DNA of 64,000 nt. Source: an uncultured Pseudomonadota bacterium (GTDB lineage Bacteria > Vulcanimicrobiota > Vulcanimicrobiia > Eremiobacterales > Eremiobacteraceae). Below, piece by piece: positions 946 to 55,006 of the stretch (position 1 is the stretch's first letter; every line of letters starts with the position of its first letter). A program made the position numbers and the translations under genes. A model generated the notes under the pieces. It did no database searches. It had not been told where the DNA came from and worked only from the letters and a program-made list of their open reading frames with translations. The stretch covers positions 192,001 through 256,000 of the forward strand of contig CAVTNB010000003.1 in assembly GCA_963736005.1 (NCBI GenBank), in the 5' to 3' direction.

Positions 946-1126
946 GGCACTAAATTGTCTTTTCTGTCTCTCTTTGCGAGGCTCCGCCACTTGATTCTGC
1001 GGCACCAAACAGGGGTATAGTTACGTTATGTCTTGGATGAAGGCAGAGGGTAAGACACACCTGTTTCGAACATATGTGCGTTTGCCCTCTGGGTTCATTC
1101 CCAAGGGGTCTAAGGAGGGAAACCGT

Positions 1127-2425
1127 TTGAAACACATACATCTCGCGGTGGCCGCGGCGGCATTGTTCGCCGTTGCGTGCATCGCGCCCAGCTTCGCTGA
1201 CAGTTCTGTCAACGTCTTGGCCTCGCAGACGAAGGCTTTCTCCGGAACGGTAACTTCGGCAACGTCCGGGTTCCAAGTCTCTGATGCCATGATGGATTTT
1301 GGCAACCCGCCGTCAGGCGAAGTGCCGATCCTGTTTAACGATCACCATGTCTATGCTAACCCCGACACGCTGCGACAAGGACGCGTCCTTGCAGCTCTTG
1401 TGAAAAACGGTACGATTCTTGTGCCGCTGCGCAGCATGTTCGAGCAGATGGGTGCAACCGTTTCTTACGATGCGGGCAGCAAGTCCGTCACGGCTTCCAA
1501 GCCCGGTTCGCAAGTGCAAGTCACGCTCGGCAAGAATGAAGTCGTGATCAACGGCGAGTCGCGTCCCCTCGACGTACCGCCGATGATGTACAAAGGCGTC
1601 ATGCTCGTTCCAGTGCGCGTCATCTCCGAAGCACTCGGAGCCTACGTGCAATGGGTTCCTGAGCAGCACGTCTGCGTCGTGCGCTACATTCCGCCGACCC
1701 CAGTGCCAACGGCGGCGCCAACTGCGCCACCGACACCAGTGCCGACGCCTGCTCCAACGGGAACACCGGCCCCGGTGGGCTTCGTCCAGGGTGCGTACGT
1801 CAGCGGCCTCACCGCCAATGAGTTCTCACCCAACAATCACGATTCGAGCGCCTATACGGGCGAGGGTGCACTCTTCCTCGGACAGTGGGCCATCGTCGGC
1901 AATGTGCGCAGCGACTCATTCCGGACGGCGCACAACGCGCAAGATCCGACCGGCAACCCGCTCACGGGCTTTGCAACAATCGATGGTGGCTTCGCGACGA
2001 CTCCCGTGTTCCAAGCGCGGCAGACAAATGTCGATGGACGGCTAGAGTATCAAATTCTCAAGCCGCACTTCGACATTGCTGGAAGTTACATTGACCTGTG
2101 GAACAACTACGGCTATCCGCGATTGACGGGAGGCGGTTTCGGGCTCGACAAGCTGCCCGATTTCCAAAGCGACCTGGGTTGGTATGGATCTATTATGTAC
2201 TACCCAGCCGTGAAGGGAACGTACGTGGTGCCTGCCGGACCCAACGCCGGCATGAGCTTCACACAGCAATACCAGCTGTACAAGTACGACATCGGCCTGG
2301 ATTACGGAGCGTCGCACGTGTATGTCATCGCAGGCTACAACGGCGATCGCTACACGGCAAAATCCGGCGCTCCAATAAACCAAACGCATGAAGGTCCGTA
2401 CCTCGGACTTGGAGTTCGATTCTAG
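1127..2425 (+). CDS. Secreted copper amine oxidase N-terminal (stalk) domain protein with Pro/Thr linker and predicted C-terminal beta-barrel, copy 1
   Basis: TTG start after AAGGAGG; signal peptide; LVPLRSMFEQMGATVSYD and LVPVRVISEALGAYVQW motifs; PTPVPT linker; C-terminus YLGLGVRF. Confidence 0.8.
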   Translation: MKHIHLAVAAAALFAVACIAPSFADSSVNVLASQTKAFSGTVTSATSGFQVSDAMMDFGNPPSGEVPILFNDHHVYANPDTLRQGRVLAALVKNGTILVPLRSMFEQMGATVSYDAGSKSVTASKPGSQVQVTLGKNEVVINGESRPLDVPPMMYKGVMLVPVRVISEALGAYVQWVPEQHVCVVRYIPPTPVPTAAPTAPPTPVPTPAPTGTPAPVGFVQGAYVSGLTANEFSPNNHDSSAYTGEGALFLGQWAIVGNVRSDSFRTAHNAQDPTGNPLTGFATIDGGFATTPVFQARQTNVDGRLEYQILKPHFDIAGSYIDLWNNYGYPRLTGGGFGLDKLPDFQSDLGWYGSIMYYPAVKGTYVVPAGPNAGMSFTQQYQLYKYDIGLDYGASHVYVIAGYNGDRYTAKSGAPINQTHEGPYLGLGVRF

Positions 2426-2448
2426 CGCAACACCACGCGAAGAGTCAT

Positions 2449-2485
2449 AAGGCGCCCGAGTGTATCTCGGGCGTCTTCTTTTTTT
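2449..2485 (+). terminator. Intrinsic terminator
   Basis: GGCGCCCGAG-tgtat-CTCGGGCGTC stem followed by TTCTTTTTTT. Confidence 0.85.
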
Positions 2486-2510
2486 AAATTTTTATCTTGT
2501 CCCCCAGCGC

Positions 2511-2557
2511 GGTTTATAACGGCGCGGGTGGGAAATTGAATGCAAAGCGCAAACGAT
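2511..2557 (+). promoter_or_regulatory. Putative alternative-sigma promoter plus conserved box
   Basis: GGTTT-N14-GGGAAA followed by CGCAAACGAT; the same arrangement recurs at 3912-3959. Confidence 0.45.
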
Positions 2558-2598
2558 GCTGCCCATTGGGAGCCTACGCTAACGAGGAGGAACACGAC

Positions 2599-3813
2599 TT
2601 GAAGCGATTCCGTCTCGCGACACTCGTCGCAGCGATGTTCGTGCTGTCGAGCATCGCGCCGAGTTTTGCCGATGCCATGATGGATTTTGGCAACCCGCCG
2701 TCAGGCGAAGTGCCGATCCTGTTTAACGATCACCATGTCTACGCTAACCCTGACACGCTGCGACAAGGACGCGTCCTTGCAGCGCTCGTGAAACACGGTA
2801 CGATTCTCGTGCCGCTGCGCAGCATGTTCGAGCAGATGGGTGCAACCGTTTCTTACGATGCGGGCAGCAAGTCCGTCACGGCTTCCAAGCCGGGCTCGCA
2901 AGTACAAGTGACCCTCGGCAAGAGCGAAGTCGTCATCAACGGCGAGTCACGTCCGCTCGACGTCCCACCCATGATGTACAAGGGCGTCTTGCTCGTTCCA
3001 GTGCGCGTCATCTCCGAAGCACTCGGAGCCTACGTGCAATGGGTGCCCGAGCAGCATGTCTGCGTGGTGCGCTACATTCCGCCGACGCCTGTGCCAACGA
3101 TGGCACCAACTGCGCCACCCACAGCCGTGCCGACACCAACAGCGACCCCCACTCCCGCGCCTCTTGGTTTCATTCAAGGCGCCTACGTCTCCGGCAGAAC
3201 GGCCAACGAGTATGCCAATAACGTTCACGATCAAAGTGGATACAACGGAGAAGCGGGTTTGTTCTTCGGTCAATGGGCGGTCGTCGGAGCAGCTCGTGCA
3301 GACCAATACCGCACATCGCACAACGCGCAAGATCCAACCGGCAACCCGCTCACGGGCTTTGCAACGATCGATGGTGGTTTCGCGACGACTCCCGTCTTCT
3401 TAGCGCGGCAGACGAACATCGACGGGCGGGTTGAATATCAGATCGCGAAGCCCCACATTTATATTGCTGGCAGTTTTCTCACGGTGTACACAAACTACGG
3501 TAATCCCCGTCTGACGGGCGGCGGAGCGGGCTTAGAAAAGTTGCCCGATCCAAACAGTGCGTTTGGCTTTTTCGGCTCGTTCTTCTACTACCCCAACATG
3601 CGCGGCACGTATGTGGAAACGGCCGGGCCAAACAACGGCACATCGTACCTACAAGAATACCAAATCATGACATATAACATCGGGCTGAACTACGGACCCT
3701 CGAGAATCTACGTCATTGCCGGATTCAACGGTGACCGCTACACGGCAAAGCAGAACGCGCCAATAAATCAGACGCATGCTGGACCATACCTCGGTCTTGG
3801 AATCCGATTCTAG
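2599..3813 (+). CDS. Stalk-domain/beta-barrel protein, copy 2
   Basis: TTG start after GAGGAGG; N-domain nearly identical to copy 1; C-terminus YLGLGIRF. Confidence 0.8.
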   Translation: MKRFRLATLVAAMFVLSSIAPSFADAMMDFGNPPSGEVPILFNDHHVYANPDTLRQGRVLAALVKHGTILVPLRSMFEQMGATVSYDAGSKSVTASKPGSQVQVTLGKSEVVINGESRPLDVPPMMYKGVLLVPVRVISEALGAYVQWVPEQHVCVVRYIPPTPVPTMAPTAPPTAVPTPTATPTPAPLGFIQGAYVSGRTANEYANNVHDQSGYNGEAGLFFGQWAVVGAARADQYRTSHNAQDPTGNPLTGFATIDGGFATTPVFLARQTNIDGRVEYQIAKPHIYIAGSFLTVYTNYGNPRLTGGGAGLEKLPDPNSAFGFFGSFFYYPNMRGTYVETAGPNNGTSYLQEYQIMTYNIGLNYGPSRIYVIAGFNGDRYTAKQNAPINQTHAGPYLGLGIRF

Positions 3814-3830
3814 ACGACAAATGAAACAAG

Positions 3831-3861
3831 GTAGCGGCCGGCTCCCAAACCCGACCGCTAC
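3831..3861. repeat. GTAG-flanked inverted repeat
   Basis: GTAGCGGCCGG-ctcccaaac-CCGACCGCTAC downstream of copy 2. Confidence 0.55.
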
Positions 3862-3911
3862 GCGCCAGACTAAAGTCGGCCAACACGTCTGCATGTCCCT
3901 CATTGCGGTCT

Positions 3912-3959
3912 GGTTTCCAATGGTCTATGGTGGGAAAAAGGAATAGGAACGCAAACGAT
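3912..3959 (+). promoter_or_regulatory. Putative alternative-sigma promoter plus conserved box
   Basis: GGTTT-N15-GGGAAA followed by CGCAAACGAT at the same 18-nt offset as at 2511-2557. Confidence 0.45.
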
Positions 3960-3997
3960 TACTAGTAAGTTTGACCTATCCTGTAGGAGGATAAAAC

Positions 3998-5293
3998 TTG
4001 AAGCATTTTCACTTAGCAGTTTTCGCCGCGGCGTTGTTTGCCGTTGCGGGTATTGCGCCAAGCTTCGCTGACAGTTCTGTCAACGTCTTGGCCTCGCAGA
4101 CGAAGGTTTTCACCGGAACGGTAACTTCGGCAACGTCCGGATTCCAAGTCTCTGACGCCATGATGGATTTTGGCAACCCGCCGTCAGGCGAAGTTCCAAT
4201 TCTATTTAACGATCACCATGTCTATGCCCGCCCTGACACGCTGCGACAAGGACGCGTCCTTGCAGCACTCGTGAAAAATGGTACGATTCTTGTGCCCCTG
4301 CGCAGCATGTTCGAGCAGATGGGTGCAACCGTTTCTTACGATGCGGGCAGCAAGTCCGTCACGGCTTCCAAGCCGGGTTCACAAGTTCAGGTAACCCTTG
4401 GTAAGAACGAAGTTCTCATCAATGGCGAGTCGCGTCCCCTCGACGTGCCGCCTATGATGTACAAGGGCGTCATGCTCGTTCCAGTGCGCGTCATCTCCGA
4501 AGCACTCGGAGCCTACGTGCAATGGGTTCCTGAGCAGCACGTCTGCGTGGTGCGCTACATTCCGCCGACCCCAGTGCCAACGGCGGCTCCAACCGCGCCT
4601 GCGACGCCAGTACCGACGCCCGCTCCTAGCCCGACACCGAAACCAATTCTTGGCTACATCCAAGGTGGCTACACACAGGGCCGCGTGGCCAACGAGTTTG
4701 CGAACAACGTGACCTCGCACGGACAGGTTGGCTCCGGCGCATACCTGTTCAACCCATTCGCGGTGAAGGTCGACTTCCGCCAAGATCAGTACCAGACGAC
4801 GAACGTCCCCGGGACGAGCACCACGCTCTTCAACACGATCGATGGTGGACAGGCTGCAACCCCACAGTTCTTAGCGCGCCAATCAACGATTGACGGACGA
4901 CTTGAATTCAAGATCGTCAATCCGTGGATCAACTTCGGTCTCAGCTACTTGCAGGCTGCGACGAACTACGGCTATCCAGTCCTCAGTGGTCCGGGTGCAG
5001 GTCTTGAGAAGCTCCCTGATCTTGGGGCCAATAGCCTCGGTTGGTTTGCCTCTGGCTTCTACTACCCGAACGTGAGAGGCGAGTACACGGTTCAAAGCGG
5101 TCCTGCAACCGGTTTGAAGAAAACGCTTGAGTACCAAATCATCAAGTACGATGTTGGTCTCGACTACGTGTTCGGCGACTCACCGTTCTACATCATGGGC
5201 GGATTCAGCGGCGACCGCTTCACGGCAAAACAGAGTTCACCCATCAACGAAACCCACGCAGGTCCATATGTGGGCCTTGGGTTTAAGTTCTAA
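3998..5293 (+). CDS. Stalk-domain/beta-barrel protein, copy 3
   Basis: TTG start after AGGAGG; same architecture; C-terminus YVGLGFKF. Confidence 0.8.
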   Translation: MKHFHLAVFAAALFAVAGIAPSFADSSVNVLASQTKVFTGTVTSATSGFQVSDAMMDFGNPPSGEVPILFNDHHVYARPDTLRQGRVLAALVKNGTILVPLRSMFEQMGATVSYDAGSKSVTASKPGSQVQVTLGKNEVLINGESRPLDVPPMMYKGVMLVPVRVISEALGAYVQWVPEQHVCVVRYIPPTPVPTAAPTAPATPVPTPAPSPTPKPILGYIQGGYTQGRVANEFANNVTSHGQVGSGAYLFNPFAVKVDFRQDQYQTTNVPGTSTTLFNTIDGGQAATPQFLARQSTIDGRLEFKIVNPWINFGLSYLQAATNYGYPVLSGPGAGLEKLPDLGANSLGWFASGFYYPNVRGEYTVQSGPATGLKKTLEYQIIKYDVGLDYVFGDSPFYIMGGFSGDRFTAKQSSPINETHAGPYVGLGFKF

Positions 5294-33100: not shown

Positions 33101-33487
33101 CTAGAATCCCTCGTCCGAATCGTCCGAGTACTCGTCTTCTTCTTCAGTAAACGGCTCTTCGAAATCTTCGCTCTCGTCGTAGCCGCCAATCGTGACCGAT
33201 TCTTCCTCTTCGATGTGCGTTTGCTCGAGCAACGGTTCTTCTTCGCTGCGGTGGGTACCATGCTTCGGTGCGGCACCATTGGCGCGCGCGGCCGAGTGCG
33301 GACCGCGCTTACCCAGCGTCCGCTTGGGCTTGGCGCTCTTGCTTGGCGCTTTCGCGCGAGTGCGGCTTTTCGGTTTGGGGCGTGGTGCGGGCTTGCGCGC
33401 GGCCGACTTGCGAGCCGCGCGTCGAACTGCCTTCTTTACCTTCTTGCTCGGCTTCGACGCCGAACGCTTCTTGCGGGTGGGGCTCAT
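33101..33487 (-). CDS. Low-complexity protein with basic histone-H1-like N half and acidic C half
   Basis: AAGGAGG RBS; K/R/A/P-rich first ~80 aa followed by an E/D-rich tail. Confidence 0.7.
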   Translation of the reverse strand: MSPTRKKRSASKPSKKVKKAVRRAARKSAARKPAPRPKPKSRTRAKAPSKSAKPKRTLGKRGPHSAARANGAAPKHGTHRSEEEPLLEQTHIEEEESVTIGGYDESEDFEEPFTEEEDEYSDDSDEGF

Positions 33488-33553: not shown

Positions 33554-34003
33554 CTAGGAATTCATCTCGCGCACGACCTCGAGCACGTGCGCCGCATGCC
33601 CCGGCACTTTGACGGCCTCGAAAACATACCTGACGTTGCCGTCCTTATCTATGACGAAGGTTGTGCGCCTCGCGTTGCTCGTGGGTTCGGTCAGCACGCC
33701 GAGCACAGTGCAGATGGAACCAGTTGGATCCGCCAACAGCGGTGGCTCGATCCCTTGAGCCTTTGCGAACGCGATATGCGACTCAACGGCGTCGCGGGAA
33801 ACCCCGACGAGTGCGGTGTTCAATGCGGCGAAGTCAGCGGACCGCTGACTGAAGTCTTGCGCCTCGACCGTTCAGCCGGACGTGGCGTCCTTGGGATACG
33901 CCCACAACACGACCGATTTCGACCCGCGGAAGTCGGCCAGGTCAAGGGTTCCGTATTGGGTTTGCCCCTTGATGGGAGGCAGTAGTTTACCAATTGTAAC
34001 CAT
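33554..34003 (-). CDS. bcp: Peroxiredoxin Bcp/PrxQ with in-frame UGA at the peroxidatic position (probable selenoprotein)
   Basis: YPKDATSG-TGA-TVEAQDF continues in frame into GVSRD...LLAD...RRTTFVIDKDG; GGAGA RBS; 149 codons. Confidence 0.85.
33832..33850 (-). promoter_or_regulatory. Candidate bacterial SECIS hairpin
   Basis: AGTCAGCG-GTC-CGCTGACT; the loop begins with G, 29 nt after the UGA. Confidence 0.65.
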
Positions 34004-34014
34004 GGCATTCTCCA

Positions 34015-34347
34015 TTAGTGTTTGATCGGAACCAAGGGGCGCACTTCGAGGATTTGGTCGCCGACCCAGATGAGGGTGGGCGTACCTTTCACGGGCACGA
34101 ACCGGGCGCGGAGCCGGCACGCGCCGATGTCAACTTCCCAGATGTAGACCTGGCCCTCATAGAGCGTGTTCGAGCTTTTCGCAAAGGTCGTCGCACGGAA
34201 GGCAGCTTCTTCGGGATGCTCGCGCGGCACGAGTCCGACTTCGAGCTGCCCAACAAACGGCGCATGAAGATACACGGAGATGTTGATCACATCACCTGGG
34301 TTGTACACCTCTTTGTTCGCCGTGAGAACCACGCGTTCGATCTGCAT
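34015..34347 (-). CDS. Hypothetical beta-rich protein
   Basis: ORF directly upstream of bcp on the same strand; VLTANKEVYNPGDVINISV resembles an Ig/MG2-like strand pattern. Confidence 0.55.
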   Translation of the reverse strand: MQIERVVLTANKEVYNPGDVINISVYLHAPFVGQLEVGLVPREHPEEAAFRATTFAKSSNTLYEGQVYIWEVDIGACRLRARFVPVKGTPTLIWVGDQILEVRPLVPIKH

Positions 34348-34405
34348 CCGGCGCTCGTCGTTCGAGCCGGGGGCGCTTCGACCTTGCGACGAATGAGTGT
34401 TTTCC

Positions 34406-35863
34406 ATGAATGACGCCATCTTCGAACGGCTGGCTGCCATCGTTGGTCGCGACCACGCGACGATCCAGCCCGGCGATCTCTCGAACTATCAATACGATGG
34501 TTCTGCGGATCACGCCCTGCCGGAGGCCGTGGTCTCGCCGGGCAGCGCCCAGGAAGTTGCGGCGCTCGTCGCCCTGTGCAATGAATATGACTGCCCATAT
34601 CTCGCTCGCGGTGCGGGCACGGGACTCTCCGGCGGAGCCATCCCCGAGAGCGGTGGTGTCGTTCTCTCCATGGCGCGCCTGTGCCGGATCTTGGAGATCG
34701 ATCCTGTCAATCGGCTGGCAGTTGTCGAACCTGGCGTCGTCAATGCAAACATCAGCAGCGCGGTGAAACACCTCGGCTTGCAGTTCGTTCCCGATCCGTC
34801 CAGCCAAGGCGTATGCACGATCGGCGGCAACGTTGCCGAGAATTCGGGCGGCCTGCACTGCTTGGCGTATGGGGTGACCTCGCATCACGTGCTTGGCTGC
34901 GAAGTCGTGACGCCGCAGGGTGATATCGTGTGGTTCGGCGGAAAAACGGCTGACGCGCCAGGCTACGATCTGTTAGGAGTCTTTATCGGTTCCGAGGGCA
35001 CGCTCGGGATCGCGACCAAGATCGTCGTAAAGCTGACGCCCGTACGTCAAAGCTCCCGCACGTTGCTTGCGGTGTACGATGCAATTGACGATGCATCGCG
35101 GACCGTTTCGGACATCATCGCGGGTGGCATCATTCCGGCCGCACTGGAAATGATGGATCAGCTTTCGACTGCAACCATCGAAGCGTTCGTGCACGCTGGG
35201 TTTCCGACAGATGCGGGAGCCGTCCTTATCGTTGAGGTTGAGGGACTACCCGACAGTGCCGCCGAGTCAGCCGAGGCGGTTCGCGGCATTTGCACTCGCA
35301 ATGGCGCCCGTGAGGTGCGCGAAGCTCGCGATGCGGCAGAACGCGAGCGCATTTGGCTCGGGCGCAAGAGCGCCTTCGGGGCCATGGGAAGGCTCAGCAA
35401 GAGCTACTATGTTGCCGACGGGGTGATTCCGCGAACTAAGCTGCCGCAGGTGCTAGCTCAGGTCGCCGAGATCGGCGCGCGCTATGGCCTGCGGATCGCC
35501 AATGTCTTTCACGCCGGCGATGGCAATTTGCATCCGCTGATTGCCTTCGACGATCGAAAGCCGGGGGACTACGAGCGGACGGTCGCCGCGGCGGCTGACA
35601 TTCTTCGCGCCTGCGTGGAGGCGGGCGGCAGCATCTCGGGCGAGCATGGCATTGGTATCGAAAAACGTGACTGTATGACGCTGCAGTACGGCGCTGCGGA
35701 CCTTGCGCTGATGGCAAAACTCAAGTCGGCTTTTAATCCGCGCGGTCTCTGCAATCCAGCCAAAATGTTCCCCACTTCGCGCCGCTGTGGCGAGAGCTCG
35801 CGAATTCACGCAAGCGGCAAGCTGTCCGCCGACGTCGAGCGCTCCATCGGGCCGGCATTCTGA
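34406..35863 (+). CDS. glcD: Glycolate oxidase FAD-linked subunit
   Basis: RGAGTGLSGG, PDPSS, GSEGTLG, HAGDGNLHP, GEHGIG. Confidence 0.9.
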   Translation: MNDAIFERLAAIVGRDHATIQPGDLSNYQYDGSADHALPEAVVSPGSAQEVAALVALCNEYDCPYLARGAGTGLSGGAIPESGGVVLSMARLCRILEIDPVNRLAVVEPGVVNANISSAVKHLGLQFVPDPSSQGVCTIGGNVAENSGGLHCLAYGVTSHHVLGCEVVTPQGDIVWFGGKTADAPGYDLLGVFIGSEGTLGIATKIVVKLTPVRQSSRTLLAVYDAIDDASRTVSDIIAGGIIPAALEMMDQLSTATIEAFVHAGFPTDAGAVLIVEVEGLPDSAAESAEAVRGICTRNGAREVREARDAAERERIWLGRKSAFGAMGRLSKSYYVADGVIPRTKLPQVLAQVAEIGARYGLRIANVFHAGDGNLHPLIAFDDRKPGDYERTVAAAADILRACVEAGGSISGEHGIGIEKRDCMTLQYGAADLALMAKLKSAFNPRGLCNPAKMFPTSRRCGESSRIHASGKLSADVERSIGPAF

Positions 35864-53049: not shown

Positions 53050-53544
53050 TCAGGCCTTGGGATGGAAGGTGAGCGCTACACCGTTCATGCAGTAGCGCAA
53101 CCCCGTGGGCTTTGGCCCATCGTCAAACACATGACCCAAATGGCTGCCGCAGCGGCTGCAATGCACTTCAGTGCGAGTCTCGATCCACGAATTGTCGACC
53201 GAAGTTTCGACCGCATTTGGCAACGGAGCCCAAAAACTCGGCCAACCGGTACCGCTGTCGAACTTGGTTGCGGATGAGAATAGCGCGAGATCGCAGCCGG
53301 CGCACGAGAACGTACCTTCCCGATGCTCCTTCTCGAGCGGGCTACTAAAAGCAGGCTCGGTTCCCGCCTGTCTTAGGACCGCGTACTGTTCGGGGGTGAG
53401 CCGGGCGCGCCACTGCGCGTCGGTCAATTCGAATTCATAATGTTTCGTCTGAGCCAAAGCGATGGATCTCCTTCCCATGACTCGTTCGGCGATAAAAGCG
53501 ACCCCGATCGCGAGGCCCGCTCGTAGCAATGTCTGTCGGGTCAT
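53050..53544 (-). CDS. msrB: Peptide-methionine (R)-S-oxide reductase with N-terminal export signal
   Basis: GTEPAF, KFDSGTGWPSF, HLGHVFDDGP, RYCMN. Confidence 0.95.
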   Translation of the reverse strand: MTRQTLLRAGLAIGVAFIAERVMGRRSIALAQTKHYEFELTDAQWRARLTPEQYAVLRQAGTEPAFSSPLEKEHREGTFSCAGCDLALFSSATKFDSGTGWPSFWAPLPNAVETSVDNSWIETRTEVHCSRCGSHLGHVFDDGPKPTGLRYCMNGVALTFHPKA

Positions 53545-53627: not shown

Positions 53628-54191
53628 TTACGTGTCGTGATCCACATAATATGCCCCCCGAATCTTCTGGATGAGTCCGATGGCCACTTGGGCGCCATGC
53701 CCGGCTGAAATGATCGCCTGACTCGGCAAGCCTGTGATCCGACCGACCGCCAAGCAGCCCGCCACGCGAGTTTGGCCGACCGCATCAACGCTGACGAATT
53801 TGTTGCCGAAACCCCCAAGCGTCAACCCAAGTTGCAGGGCCAGGTCCGTCCGCTTGTTCGAGGCGATGATAAAATGAGTGCAGGTGCATGAGCGCCCGCT
53901 TGCATCGATCTCAAATCCATCGCTTGTCTTTCGTACCGCGGTGATTTGGTCATCGAAGCAACGCACGCCGAAGCGCTCCACTTGCCGGCGGCCCAGATCC
54001 AACAGCTCCGCGCCGCCGACGCCTTCCGGAAACCCAAGATAGTTATATACCTTTGCGACGCGTCGCAAGCTCGACTGCGCGCCATCGAAAACGGCAACGT
54101 TGACGCCCGCTCGCGCCAAGAACAAAGCGCATGACAAGCCGGCTGCTCCGCCGCCGGCAATGATGACATCAAAACGCTCCCGAGCGATCAT
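53628..54191 (-). CDS. Short FAD-dependent oxidoreductase (TrxR-like)
   Basis: GGGAAG, NYLGFPEG, SQAIISAG.G, C-terminal YVDHD. Confidence 0.8.
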   Translation of the reverse strand: MIARERFDVIIAGGGAAGLSCALFLARAGVNVAVFDGAQSSLRRVAKVYNYLGFPEGVGGAELLDLGRRQVERFGVRCFDDQITAVRKTSDGFEIDASGRSCTCTHFIIASNKRTDLALQLGLTLGGFGNKFVSVDAVGQTRVAGCLAVGRITGLPSQAIISAGHGAQVAIGLIQKIRGAYYVDHDT

Positions 54192-55006
54192 AGCAAGCGC
54201 AGCTCGCCCGTCTCTTTTGGCGCGGGTTCGCCCAAGCGGACAATCATGCTGCGCACCGTGGCCGGAGCGTACCCCTCGTAGTCGTTGCTCGCGTAGGCGT
54301 AAATATCGGTGCACGTGGCTCGCAGCGAGCGGATCAAACGCTCCCAGACATCCAGCGACCCGCTGCGGTCAAGCTGTACGCAATCGTATTTTGGAAAACT
54401 CTGGTCGCCTAACCAGCGAATGTAGGCGTACGGAACGGCCGGTTGACGCACCAGCTCTTCGACGATTCTCGACGCCAGTGTGGTATCGCCGTGCGATCCG
54501 TCCGTCACCGCGAGCGTGAACTTCACGGCGCGGGCAAAATCAAAGAGCGTGCTATCGTACCAGCGCGGATCGCGAAGCTCGAGCGCGACCGGGAGATCTC
54601 CGGGCAGTTCCGTTTCCAAAAATGAAAAGAGCGCGGCGCGGGCATCTCGTGTCGGCGCAAAGTCAGGTGGGCACTGAATGAGGATGGCGCCCGCTTTGTC
54701 GCCCATCGCTCTGACGCGGGTGAGAAAGGCGGCAAAGTACGTGTCCGCGTTGACGAAGCGGCGCTCGTGCGTCACGGTCGAGGGCGTCTTGAAGGAAAAA
54801 GTAAAACCATCGCAACTGCGCTGGCGCCATAATTGGACCGTGGTCGCGCGCGGAATGCCATAGTACGACGAGTCGACCTCGACCGACGAAAAGATGCCAG
54901 AGTAAAACGCAAGCATGTCGGGCGCCTTGGTGCCAGGCGGGTAAAACGGTCCGACCCAGTCCTTATAATTCCAACTCGAGGTGCCGAAGTGGAGCCGAGC
55001 GCTCAC
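54188..55006 (-). CDS. DUF72 family protein
   Basis: GTSSW, FYP, VEVDSSYY, THE, QCPP, YIR, NDYEGYAP. Confidence 0.9.
   Translation of the reverse strand: MSARLHFGTSSWNYKDWVGPFYPPGTKAPDMLAFYSGIFSSVEVDSSYYGIPRATTVQLWRQRSCDGFTFSFKTPSTVTHERRFVNADTYFAAFLTRVRAMGDKAGAILIQCPPDFAPTRDARAALFSFLETELPGDLPVALELRDPRWYDSTLFDFARAVKFTLAVTDGSHGDTTLASRIVEELVRQPAVPYAYIRWLGDQSFPKYDCVQLDRSGSLDVWERLIRSLRATCTDIYAYASNDYEGYAPATVRSMIVRLGEPAPKETGELRLL

Follow-up and report, generated by a model that had tools for sequence, protein, structure and literature searches.

PrxU of Eubacterium acidaminophilum, reportedly described by Sohling et al. in 2001, is said to be a thioredoxin-dependent peroxiredoxin with selenocysteine (Sec) at its peroxidatic site. 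The available sections of a 2026 review (PMC13188914) list a prokaryotic Sec-peroxiredoxin family (PF00578, TxxU / PxxxTxxU) as experimentally verified, and those of a survey from 2006 (PMC1794560) count 12 bacterial members and five Cys-to-Sec events. The kind is therefore already known from an established family, as the first-pass annotation of the present locus had stated; membership in the PrxQ/BCP subfamily is not stated in these sections of either paper. Two active-site signatures of PrxQ, P(K/A/R)(D/A)xTxGC and G(V/I)SxD, are given in the available part of the peroxiredoxin atlas (PMC5302317). The consensus bacterial SECIS element (bSECIS), as set out in the sections of PMC13188914 at hand, has an apical loop of 3-9 nt on a stem of 4-16 bp, a G within the first two nucleotides of the loop, a UGA-to-loop distance of 16-37 nt and an MFE of -7.5 kcal/mol or lower.

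The locus compared here with these systems lies in a window of 64 kb, i.e. the whole stretch of DNA that was analysed. Judged from comparative sequence data, the gene at 33554..34003 on the reverse strand very probably encodes a peroxiredoxin of the PrxQ/BCP subfamily with a peroxidatic Sec. It has in common with the known family the Pfam domain PF00578 and the position of Sec in PxxxTxxU, and with PrxU the Sec proposed at the peroxidatic site. Against the NCBIfam model of PrxU (NF040737 peroxi_PrxU, 233 positions) the protein reached 49.4 bits, with a cut-off of 270 bits, and by this measure it is a member of a different, shorter subfamily. A full-text literature search, with subscription journals and supplements outside its scope, yielded no publication linking Eremiobacterota with selenocysteine; a like search on selenocysteine and PrxQ gave, among the papers listed, none that deals with a Sec-PrxQ by title or abstract, and one on Eremiobacterota and selenium gave nothing of relevance among those listed, the first of which treats selenite reduction in Cyanobacteria. 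Sec use in this lineage seems to have gone unreported so far, and Sec in the PrxQ subfamily possibly as well. The locus would place Sec use in a candidate phylum that is Eremiobacterota-like, and it offers a case, backed by conservation, of a selenoprotein gene shortened by routine gene calling. The known mechanism of Sec decoding is left unchanged by it.

A peroxiredoxin reading frame interrupted by a single UGA

Two ORFs on the reverse strand, 33872..34120 and 33554..33823, share one frame that is broken solely by a TGA at 33874-33872. Translation through this TGA from the ATG at 34003 to the TAG at 33556-33554 gives a complete protein of 149 aa, ...WAYPKDATSG-U-TVEAQDFSQRSADF..., in which the proposed Sec is residue 44 and the peptide following U44 starts with TVEAQDF. 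The ATG at 34003 is the start kept in orthologues, while an alternative ATG at 34015 is TGG in one of them (L001); a GGAGA 5 nt 5' of the former (34009..34013, reverse strand) is its likely ribosome-binding site. The Pfam profile AhpC-TSA (PF00578) matched the read-through protein with 106.9 bits (gathering threshold 26; E 8.5e-31) over profile positions 1-124 of 124. As the profile is covered end to end, the domain spans the TGA.

The UGA aligned with an invariant Cys in 63/63 homologues. Pro37, Thr41, position 44 (the UGA here) and Arg113 are invariant columns in the 63 sequences, and both PrxQ signatures are present in the window protein, as PKDATSGU and GVSRD. All sequence statements of the first-pass annotation were found correct on re-examination, including the union of the two ORFs in one frame with a single TGA, its placement on the peroxidatic residue of the PxxxTxxC motif (PKDATSG-U-T) and the intact catalytic Arg (RRTTF), which is Arg113.

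The AlphaFold model of the protein (pLDDT 96.2, pTM 0.91) had its best structural matches in the PDB among BCP/PrxQ proteins, with TM scores of 0.90-0.92, and a sequence search of the PDB agreed. The fold is shared with the Cys-containing PrxQ/BCP protein of Burkholderia ambifaria (5enu), the PrxQ proteins of Xanthomonas campestris (5iiz/3gkk) and Xylella (3ixr) and Bcp1/Bcp4 of Sulfolobus (TM 0.88-0.92; sequence E-values 3.6e-21 to 1e-17), and the PrxQ active-site signatures are common to all. The window protein differs from them in the Sec proposed instead of the peroxidatic Cys and, by 6 residues, in having a shorter loop between beta strands than most homologues. The NCBIfam equivalog cut-offs were missed for both PrxQ (NF053650, 90.5 vs 260 bits) and Bcp (NF006960, 69.1 vs 140 bits). 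On these scores the protein is a divergent PrxQ/BCP branch and no equivalog of the curated PrxQ/Bcp models.

UGA as a stop codon and the search for Sec machinery

The 51 Pfam-supported ORFs of the window end with TAA in 21, TAG in 15 and TGA in 15 cases. TGA is thus an ordinary stop in 15/51 genes, and recoding would be local and site-specific. The proposal in the first-pass annotation that the organism recodes UGA has comparative support at the peroxiredoxin site; it does not extend to the other genes, in which TGA serves as a normal stop. Reassignment of UGA throughout the genome (code 4 or 25), or an error of sequencing or assembly, would account for the in-frame TGA itself and for nothing more. 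Reassignment is contradicted by the 15 genes that end in TGA, and an error by the identical TGA in 11 independent assemblies (see below), so that the chance of either is close to nil. Other selenoprotein genes were searched for in the window among 177 ORF candidates with TGA read-through, 19 of which remained after a loose bSECIS filter; in 0/18 of those other than the peroxiredoxin did a Pfam domain span the TGA, which again speaks against reassignment.

None of the 138 window ORFs had a SelA, SelB or SelD domain by Pfam. A match to Pfam 'SelR' at 53053-53544 was rejected, as this ORF is methionine sulfoxide reductase B (MsrB) and not part of the Sec machinery. ARAGORN detected no tRNA, including tRNA-Sec, in the 64-kb window or in the flanks of the loci L001-L012 described below; one odd tRNA-??? 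was reported for the more distant locus L013.

Conservation of the UGA and selection on both halves of the gene

A scan of species-representative genomes with the peroxiredoxin gave 62 loci, of which the 13 closest were 55-93% identical to the window protein. TGA was found at the same codon in 11/13 of these (L001, L002 and L004-L012; 64-93% protein identity), and a Cys codon in the other two (TGT in L003, TGC in L013), i.e. the alignment of orthologues proposed in the first-pass annotation did reveal Cys/UGA pairing. All 11 TGA-bearing loci have the gene order of the window. In L001-L012 and the window this is GGDEF-GlcF-GlcE-GlcD, followed by the divergent group unk141-Prx-Krich-GT2, with MoaE, SOD and FabI farther away. 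The common gene order indicates that L001-L012 are true orthologues from independent assemblies. Their submitter labels are Eremiobacterota or Vulcanimicrobiota in 8/12, 'proteobacterium' in two and 'Acidiferrales' in one.

Selection was calculated for the 12 Sec forms (window and 11 loci; 66 pairs). The N-terminal half, 5' of the TGA, had a dN/dS of 0.16 with a dS of 1.56, and the C-terminal half, 3' of the TGA, a dN/dS of 0.18 with a dS of 1.51. Codons +1..+6 after the UGA, ahead of any possible restart, gave a dN/dS of 0.26. Further stops or frameshifts were not present in any of the 12 copies. Both halves and codons +1..+6 therefore look like coding sequence. A pseudogene in decay is thereby excluded, and a split gene is made less likely. 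Decay of the downstream half, which the first-pass annotation had named as evidence of a nonsense pseudogene, was not seen.

A gene that is decaying after mutation of its Cys codon to TGA would agree with the translation by Table 11, which ends at residue 44, and with the Sec machinery not being seen within the window. It is at odds with the recurrence of this TGA in 11 other genomes (64-93% protein identity) and with a downstream half under the same constraint as the upstream half. A single contaminating sequence shared by the 12 assemblies, through which a pseudogene could recur, is excluded by the divergence of the copies (dS about 1.5). A nonsense pseudogene is accordingly a most improbable reading, and by these comparisons the peroxiredoxin gene is real.

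One orthologue deviates within the active-site motif. In L012:10001-10438, whose bin carries the label Candidatus Eremiobacter antarcticus, Ser stands in for the Pro of PxxxTxxU (AYSKDGTSG-U), with UGA and hairpin kept.

Fragments of the gene in protein collections

A search of a protein collection gave 4055 proteins at E <= 1e-10; the relatives described here are the best 120 of the 4055. The closest full-length relatives among the matches listed carry Cys (P0002, 61% identity; P0004, 57%). The entry of the window itself (P0003) is only a C-terminal piece, from a called ORF of 89 aa, and five clusters with 63-77% identity (P0005, P0006, P0007, P0020 and P0021) likewise hold only C-terminal pieces. 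The pieces are 82-89 aa long and their start residues differ between relatives. An internal stop leads gene callers to yield such fragments, and the expectation that standard annotation would miss the gene was borne out for the window gene and its five relatives.

The same predictions could be taken at face value, i.e. as a split gene with an N-terminal peptide of 43 residues and a C-terminal protein that is started separately, e.g. at TTG 33823; an 89-aa C-terminal ORF is called here and similar fragments are found in five other clusters. However, the called starts vary among relatives, the catalytic site would be lost, and codons +1..+16, which reach from the TGA to any start, are conserved at the protein level with synonymous change. 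We therefore regard two separate products as very unlikely, and one continuous product, read through the UGA, as the preferred reading.

The hairpin downstream of the UGA

The first-pass annotation had described a perfect 8-bp hairpin with a G-starting loop 29 nt past the UGA. This hairpin, AGTCAGCG-GTC-CGCTGACT, was confirmed at 33832..33850 on the reverse strand, where it encodes S-Q-R-S-A-D; the gap from the UGA is 21 nt to the stem and 28-29 nt to the loop. Its core consists of 7 invariant base pairs (AGUCAGC/GCUGACU) and the loop GGUCN; in the window, a G-C closes an eighth pair and leaves the loop GUC. The eighth pair is G-U in 7/13, G-C in 4/13 and unpaired in 2/13 sequences, and since it varies, the common structure is a 7-bp stem with the loop GGUCN. 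The motif was present in one copy in each of L001-L012 and absent elsewhere among the 63 loci.

The features of the bSECIS consensus were found in 12/12 Sec forms: loops of 3-5 nt (GUC or GGUCN) on stems of 7-8 bp, a loop opening with GG or GU, a UGA-to-loop distance of 28-29 nt and an MFE of -9.6 to -10.8 kcal/mol. The SECIS-like character ascribed to the hairpin in the first-pass annotation is supported by these four properties, together with the frozen synonymous sites described below.

The proven SECIS element of E. coli fdhF resembles the window element in being a hairpin within the coding region shortly after the UGA, and its apical loop region in the K-12 record, GCA-GGUC-UGC, contains the same GGUC followed by UGC. 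It differs in its loop spacing (18 nt vs 28 nt here) and in a bulged U in the stem, which is absent from the perfect stem of 7-8 bp in the window. The bulged U of the fdhF stem has a role in that element.

A perfect 8-bp hairpin beginning 8-30 nt downstream was found for 8 of the 1654 TGA trinucleotides of the window (0.5%), and the core hairpin motif occurred once, with 0.03 occurrences expected. The folding energy of the hairpin region was indistinguishable from that of shuffled sequences (z -0.70 and -0.81), and the fdhF element reached only z -1.33 in the same shuffle test. In a window with 59% G+C the loose bSECIS filter is unspecific, with its 19 TGA-ORF candidates passing. From the z-scores and these filter passes it follows that the hairpin by itself is weak evidence, and that the weight rests on its conservation in other genomes. 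A search of the whole window with Rfam at the gathering threshold gave 0 matches, and a more lenient search limited to 33760-33920 yielded 5 matches at chance level (E 2.9-6.7), none of them to a SECIS family. The covariation test detected no covarying pairs, as 7/8 pairs never vary, and the structure is thus backed by invariance only.

This invariance extends to synonymous sites. The seven or eight hairpin codons showed a dN of 0 and a dS of 0.26, compared with about 1.5 elsewhere. Codons +7..+10, +12 and +13 (TTC AGT CAG CGG ... GCT GAC) were identical in 66/66 pairs, including those for Ser and Arg, which are six-fold degenerate; the sole variable hairpin codon, +11, which supplies either the final base of the loop or its closing pair, was TCC, TCT, TCG or TCA. 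Outside the hairpin, full identity was limited to four codons, one of them the Gly codon just ahead of the UGA. That the hairpin codons are frozen in a gene that otherwise varies synonymously points to a constraint at the RNA level. The locus thereby offers a compact natural SECIS candidate, with a 7-bp stem and a GGUC loop frozen over about 1.5 synonymous substitutions per site.

A conserved hairpin, together with translation of both halves, would also fit a signal that stimulates UGA read-through, in which a suppressor or near-cognate tRNA inserts Trp, Cys or Gly and no Sec is involved; none of the Sec machinery was found in the window. Against insertion of a standard amino acid stand the location of the UGA on the redox residue, which is Cys in 63/63 homologues and where only Sec or Cys would preserve activity, the match of the loop GGUC and its spacing to the SelB-binding SECIS model, and the reversions described below, which yield Cys codons. 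Read-through of this type is therefore considered unlikely. Decoding of the UGA as Sec, and with it the hidden PrxQ/BCP selenoprotein proposed in the first-pass annotation, is supported by the conserved TGA, purifying selection, the frozen hairpin, the agreement with the bSECIS constraints and the C-terminal fragments in the protein collection.

Proposed decoding and catalysis

By analogy with the bacterial SECIS paradigm, the hairpin 21 nt past the UGA would recruit SelB with Sec-tRNA(Sec), and the UGA at 33874-33872 would be decoded as Sec rather than as a stop. The selenolate of U44, activated by Thr41 and Arg113, would then reduce peroxides and be converted to selenenic acid.

Only in atypical 2-Cys PrxQ proteins does a Cys at +5 or in helix alpha3 act as the resolving residue, and 1-Cys PrxQ proteins also exist. 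Cys at +5 was found in 0/63 close homologues, and the window protein has Gln49 there; Cys at the helix-alpha3 position was found in 5/63, and the window protein has Ala80. Because Cys is lacking at both of these usual PrxQ resolving positions, recycling would most likely be 1-Cys-like, with direct reduction by thioredoxin or another thiol. An alternative would be a selenenylsulfide between U44 and Cys98. The first-pass annotation had suggested that the sole Cys (GSIC) may be resolving. Cys98 is indeed the only Cys of the protein and is kept in 12/12 Sec forms, but a resolving role is doubtful: the column holds Cys in 33/63 close homologues and otherwise Leu, Val, Thr, Ser or Ile, and Cys98 looks like a buried structural position. 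Given this variability, a 1-Sec mechanism that draws on an external thiol as reductant is more likely than one resolved by Cys98.

Evolution of the Sec and Cys forms

A maximum-likelihood tree was calculated from 24 sequences and rooted at the midpoint. The Sec forms fell into a clade of 14 rows (fork support only 84/52; next fork outward 97/94), with the Cys forms P0004, L013 and P0008 as outgroups. Two Cys forms, L003 (sister of L002) and P0002, are nested within the Sec clade. By parsimony, and with the midpoint root, this corresponds to a single gain of Sec, with a return to Cys on two occasions. The Sec form appears to be ancestral to the Eremiobacterota-like clade, with at least two reversions to Cys.

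The Cys form at L003:3762-4208 (TGT) has the same synteny and retains the whole SECIS hairpin (motif 3917-3931). It has the appearance of a recent reversion from Sec to Cys that has left a fossil, now useless SECIS behind. In P0002 the hairpin motif is lost at the protein level. L002 and L003 form a natural Sec/Cys pair in the same genomic context, in which it can be asked what Sec gives a peroxiredoxin.

The Eremiobacterota are a candidate phylum known almost solely from metagenome bins, and the Eremiobacterota/Vulcanimicrobiota-like soil lineage is largely aerobic. A wider reading, to which we give an even chance, is that Sec-PrxQ is ancestral and near-universal in this soil lineage, that the full Sec machinery is kept there, that the protein is a 1-Sec enzyme and that L003 is a reversion. 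If this holds, the lineage would keep the Sec machinery for what may be a very small number of proteins, the enzyme would be a 1-Sec peroxiredoxin without a resolving Cys, and L003 would be a Sec-to-Cys reversion caught in progress. A near-universal Sec-PrxQ in an aerobic soil lineage would also run contrary to the statement, in the available sections of PMC13188914, that selenoproteins are rarely retained by aerobic bacteria.

Over all 62 loci of the genome scan, the peroxidatic codon was TGA in 22 and Cys in 39, and the region was absent in 1. A second Sec-peroxiredoxin group, unrelated to the first, was observed among them, comprising 11 loci with TGA at the peroxidatic position (L040, L042-L046, L051-L054 and L058). 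Its hosts are Acidobacteriota (Terriglobia, Bryobacterales) and one Myxococcales bin, its motif is the AhpE-like AFT(P/S/G)(G/L)-U, and most members have a hairpin type of their own, GGCUAUCAG-GCU-GAUAGCC, about 17 nt past the UGA.

Neighbouring genes and other features of the window

The ORF unk141 (34015..34440, reverse strand; 141 aa in full, about 110 aa if started at an internal Met) ends 11 nt before the start of the peroxiredoxin gene and lies directly 5' of it in 12/12 syntenic loci. Neither Pfam nor NCBIfam gave a family for it, and a search of the Atlas gave only Ig-like beta-sandwich leads below 0.9. On the 3' side of the peroxiredoxin gene lies the ORF Krich (33104-33487, reverse strand), which encodes 128 aa, the N-terminal half being rich in Lys/Arg/Ala/Pro and the C-terminus acidic. 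The position of this ORF is kept in most syntenic loci and its sequence poorly (33-91% identity), and no family was assigned to it by Pfam or NCBIfam.

An ORF of 228 aa at 53631-54314 on the reverse strand matched the thioredoxin reductase model TIGR01292 over positions 2-108 of 300 only, and may represent either a remnant left by truncation or a small protein that binds FAD; 86 nt separate it from MsrB (53053-53544), which is downstream. The most frequent stop codon of the window is TAA (21 of the 51 Pfam-supported ORFs) despite a G+C content of 59%. Perfect 8-bp hairpins were counted at 29 per strand, compared with 6.3 +/- 2.9 in first-order Markov simulations. On the forward strand, three tandem paralogous ORFs of 465, 438 and 431 aa are located at 1028-5290, each with one domain resembling the N-terminal domain of copper amine oxidase.
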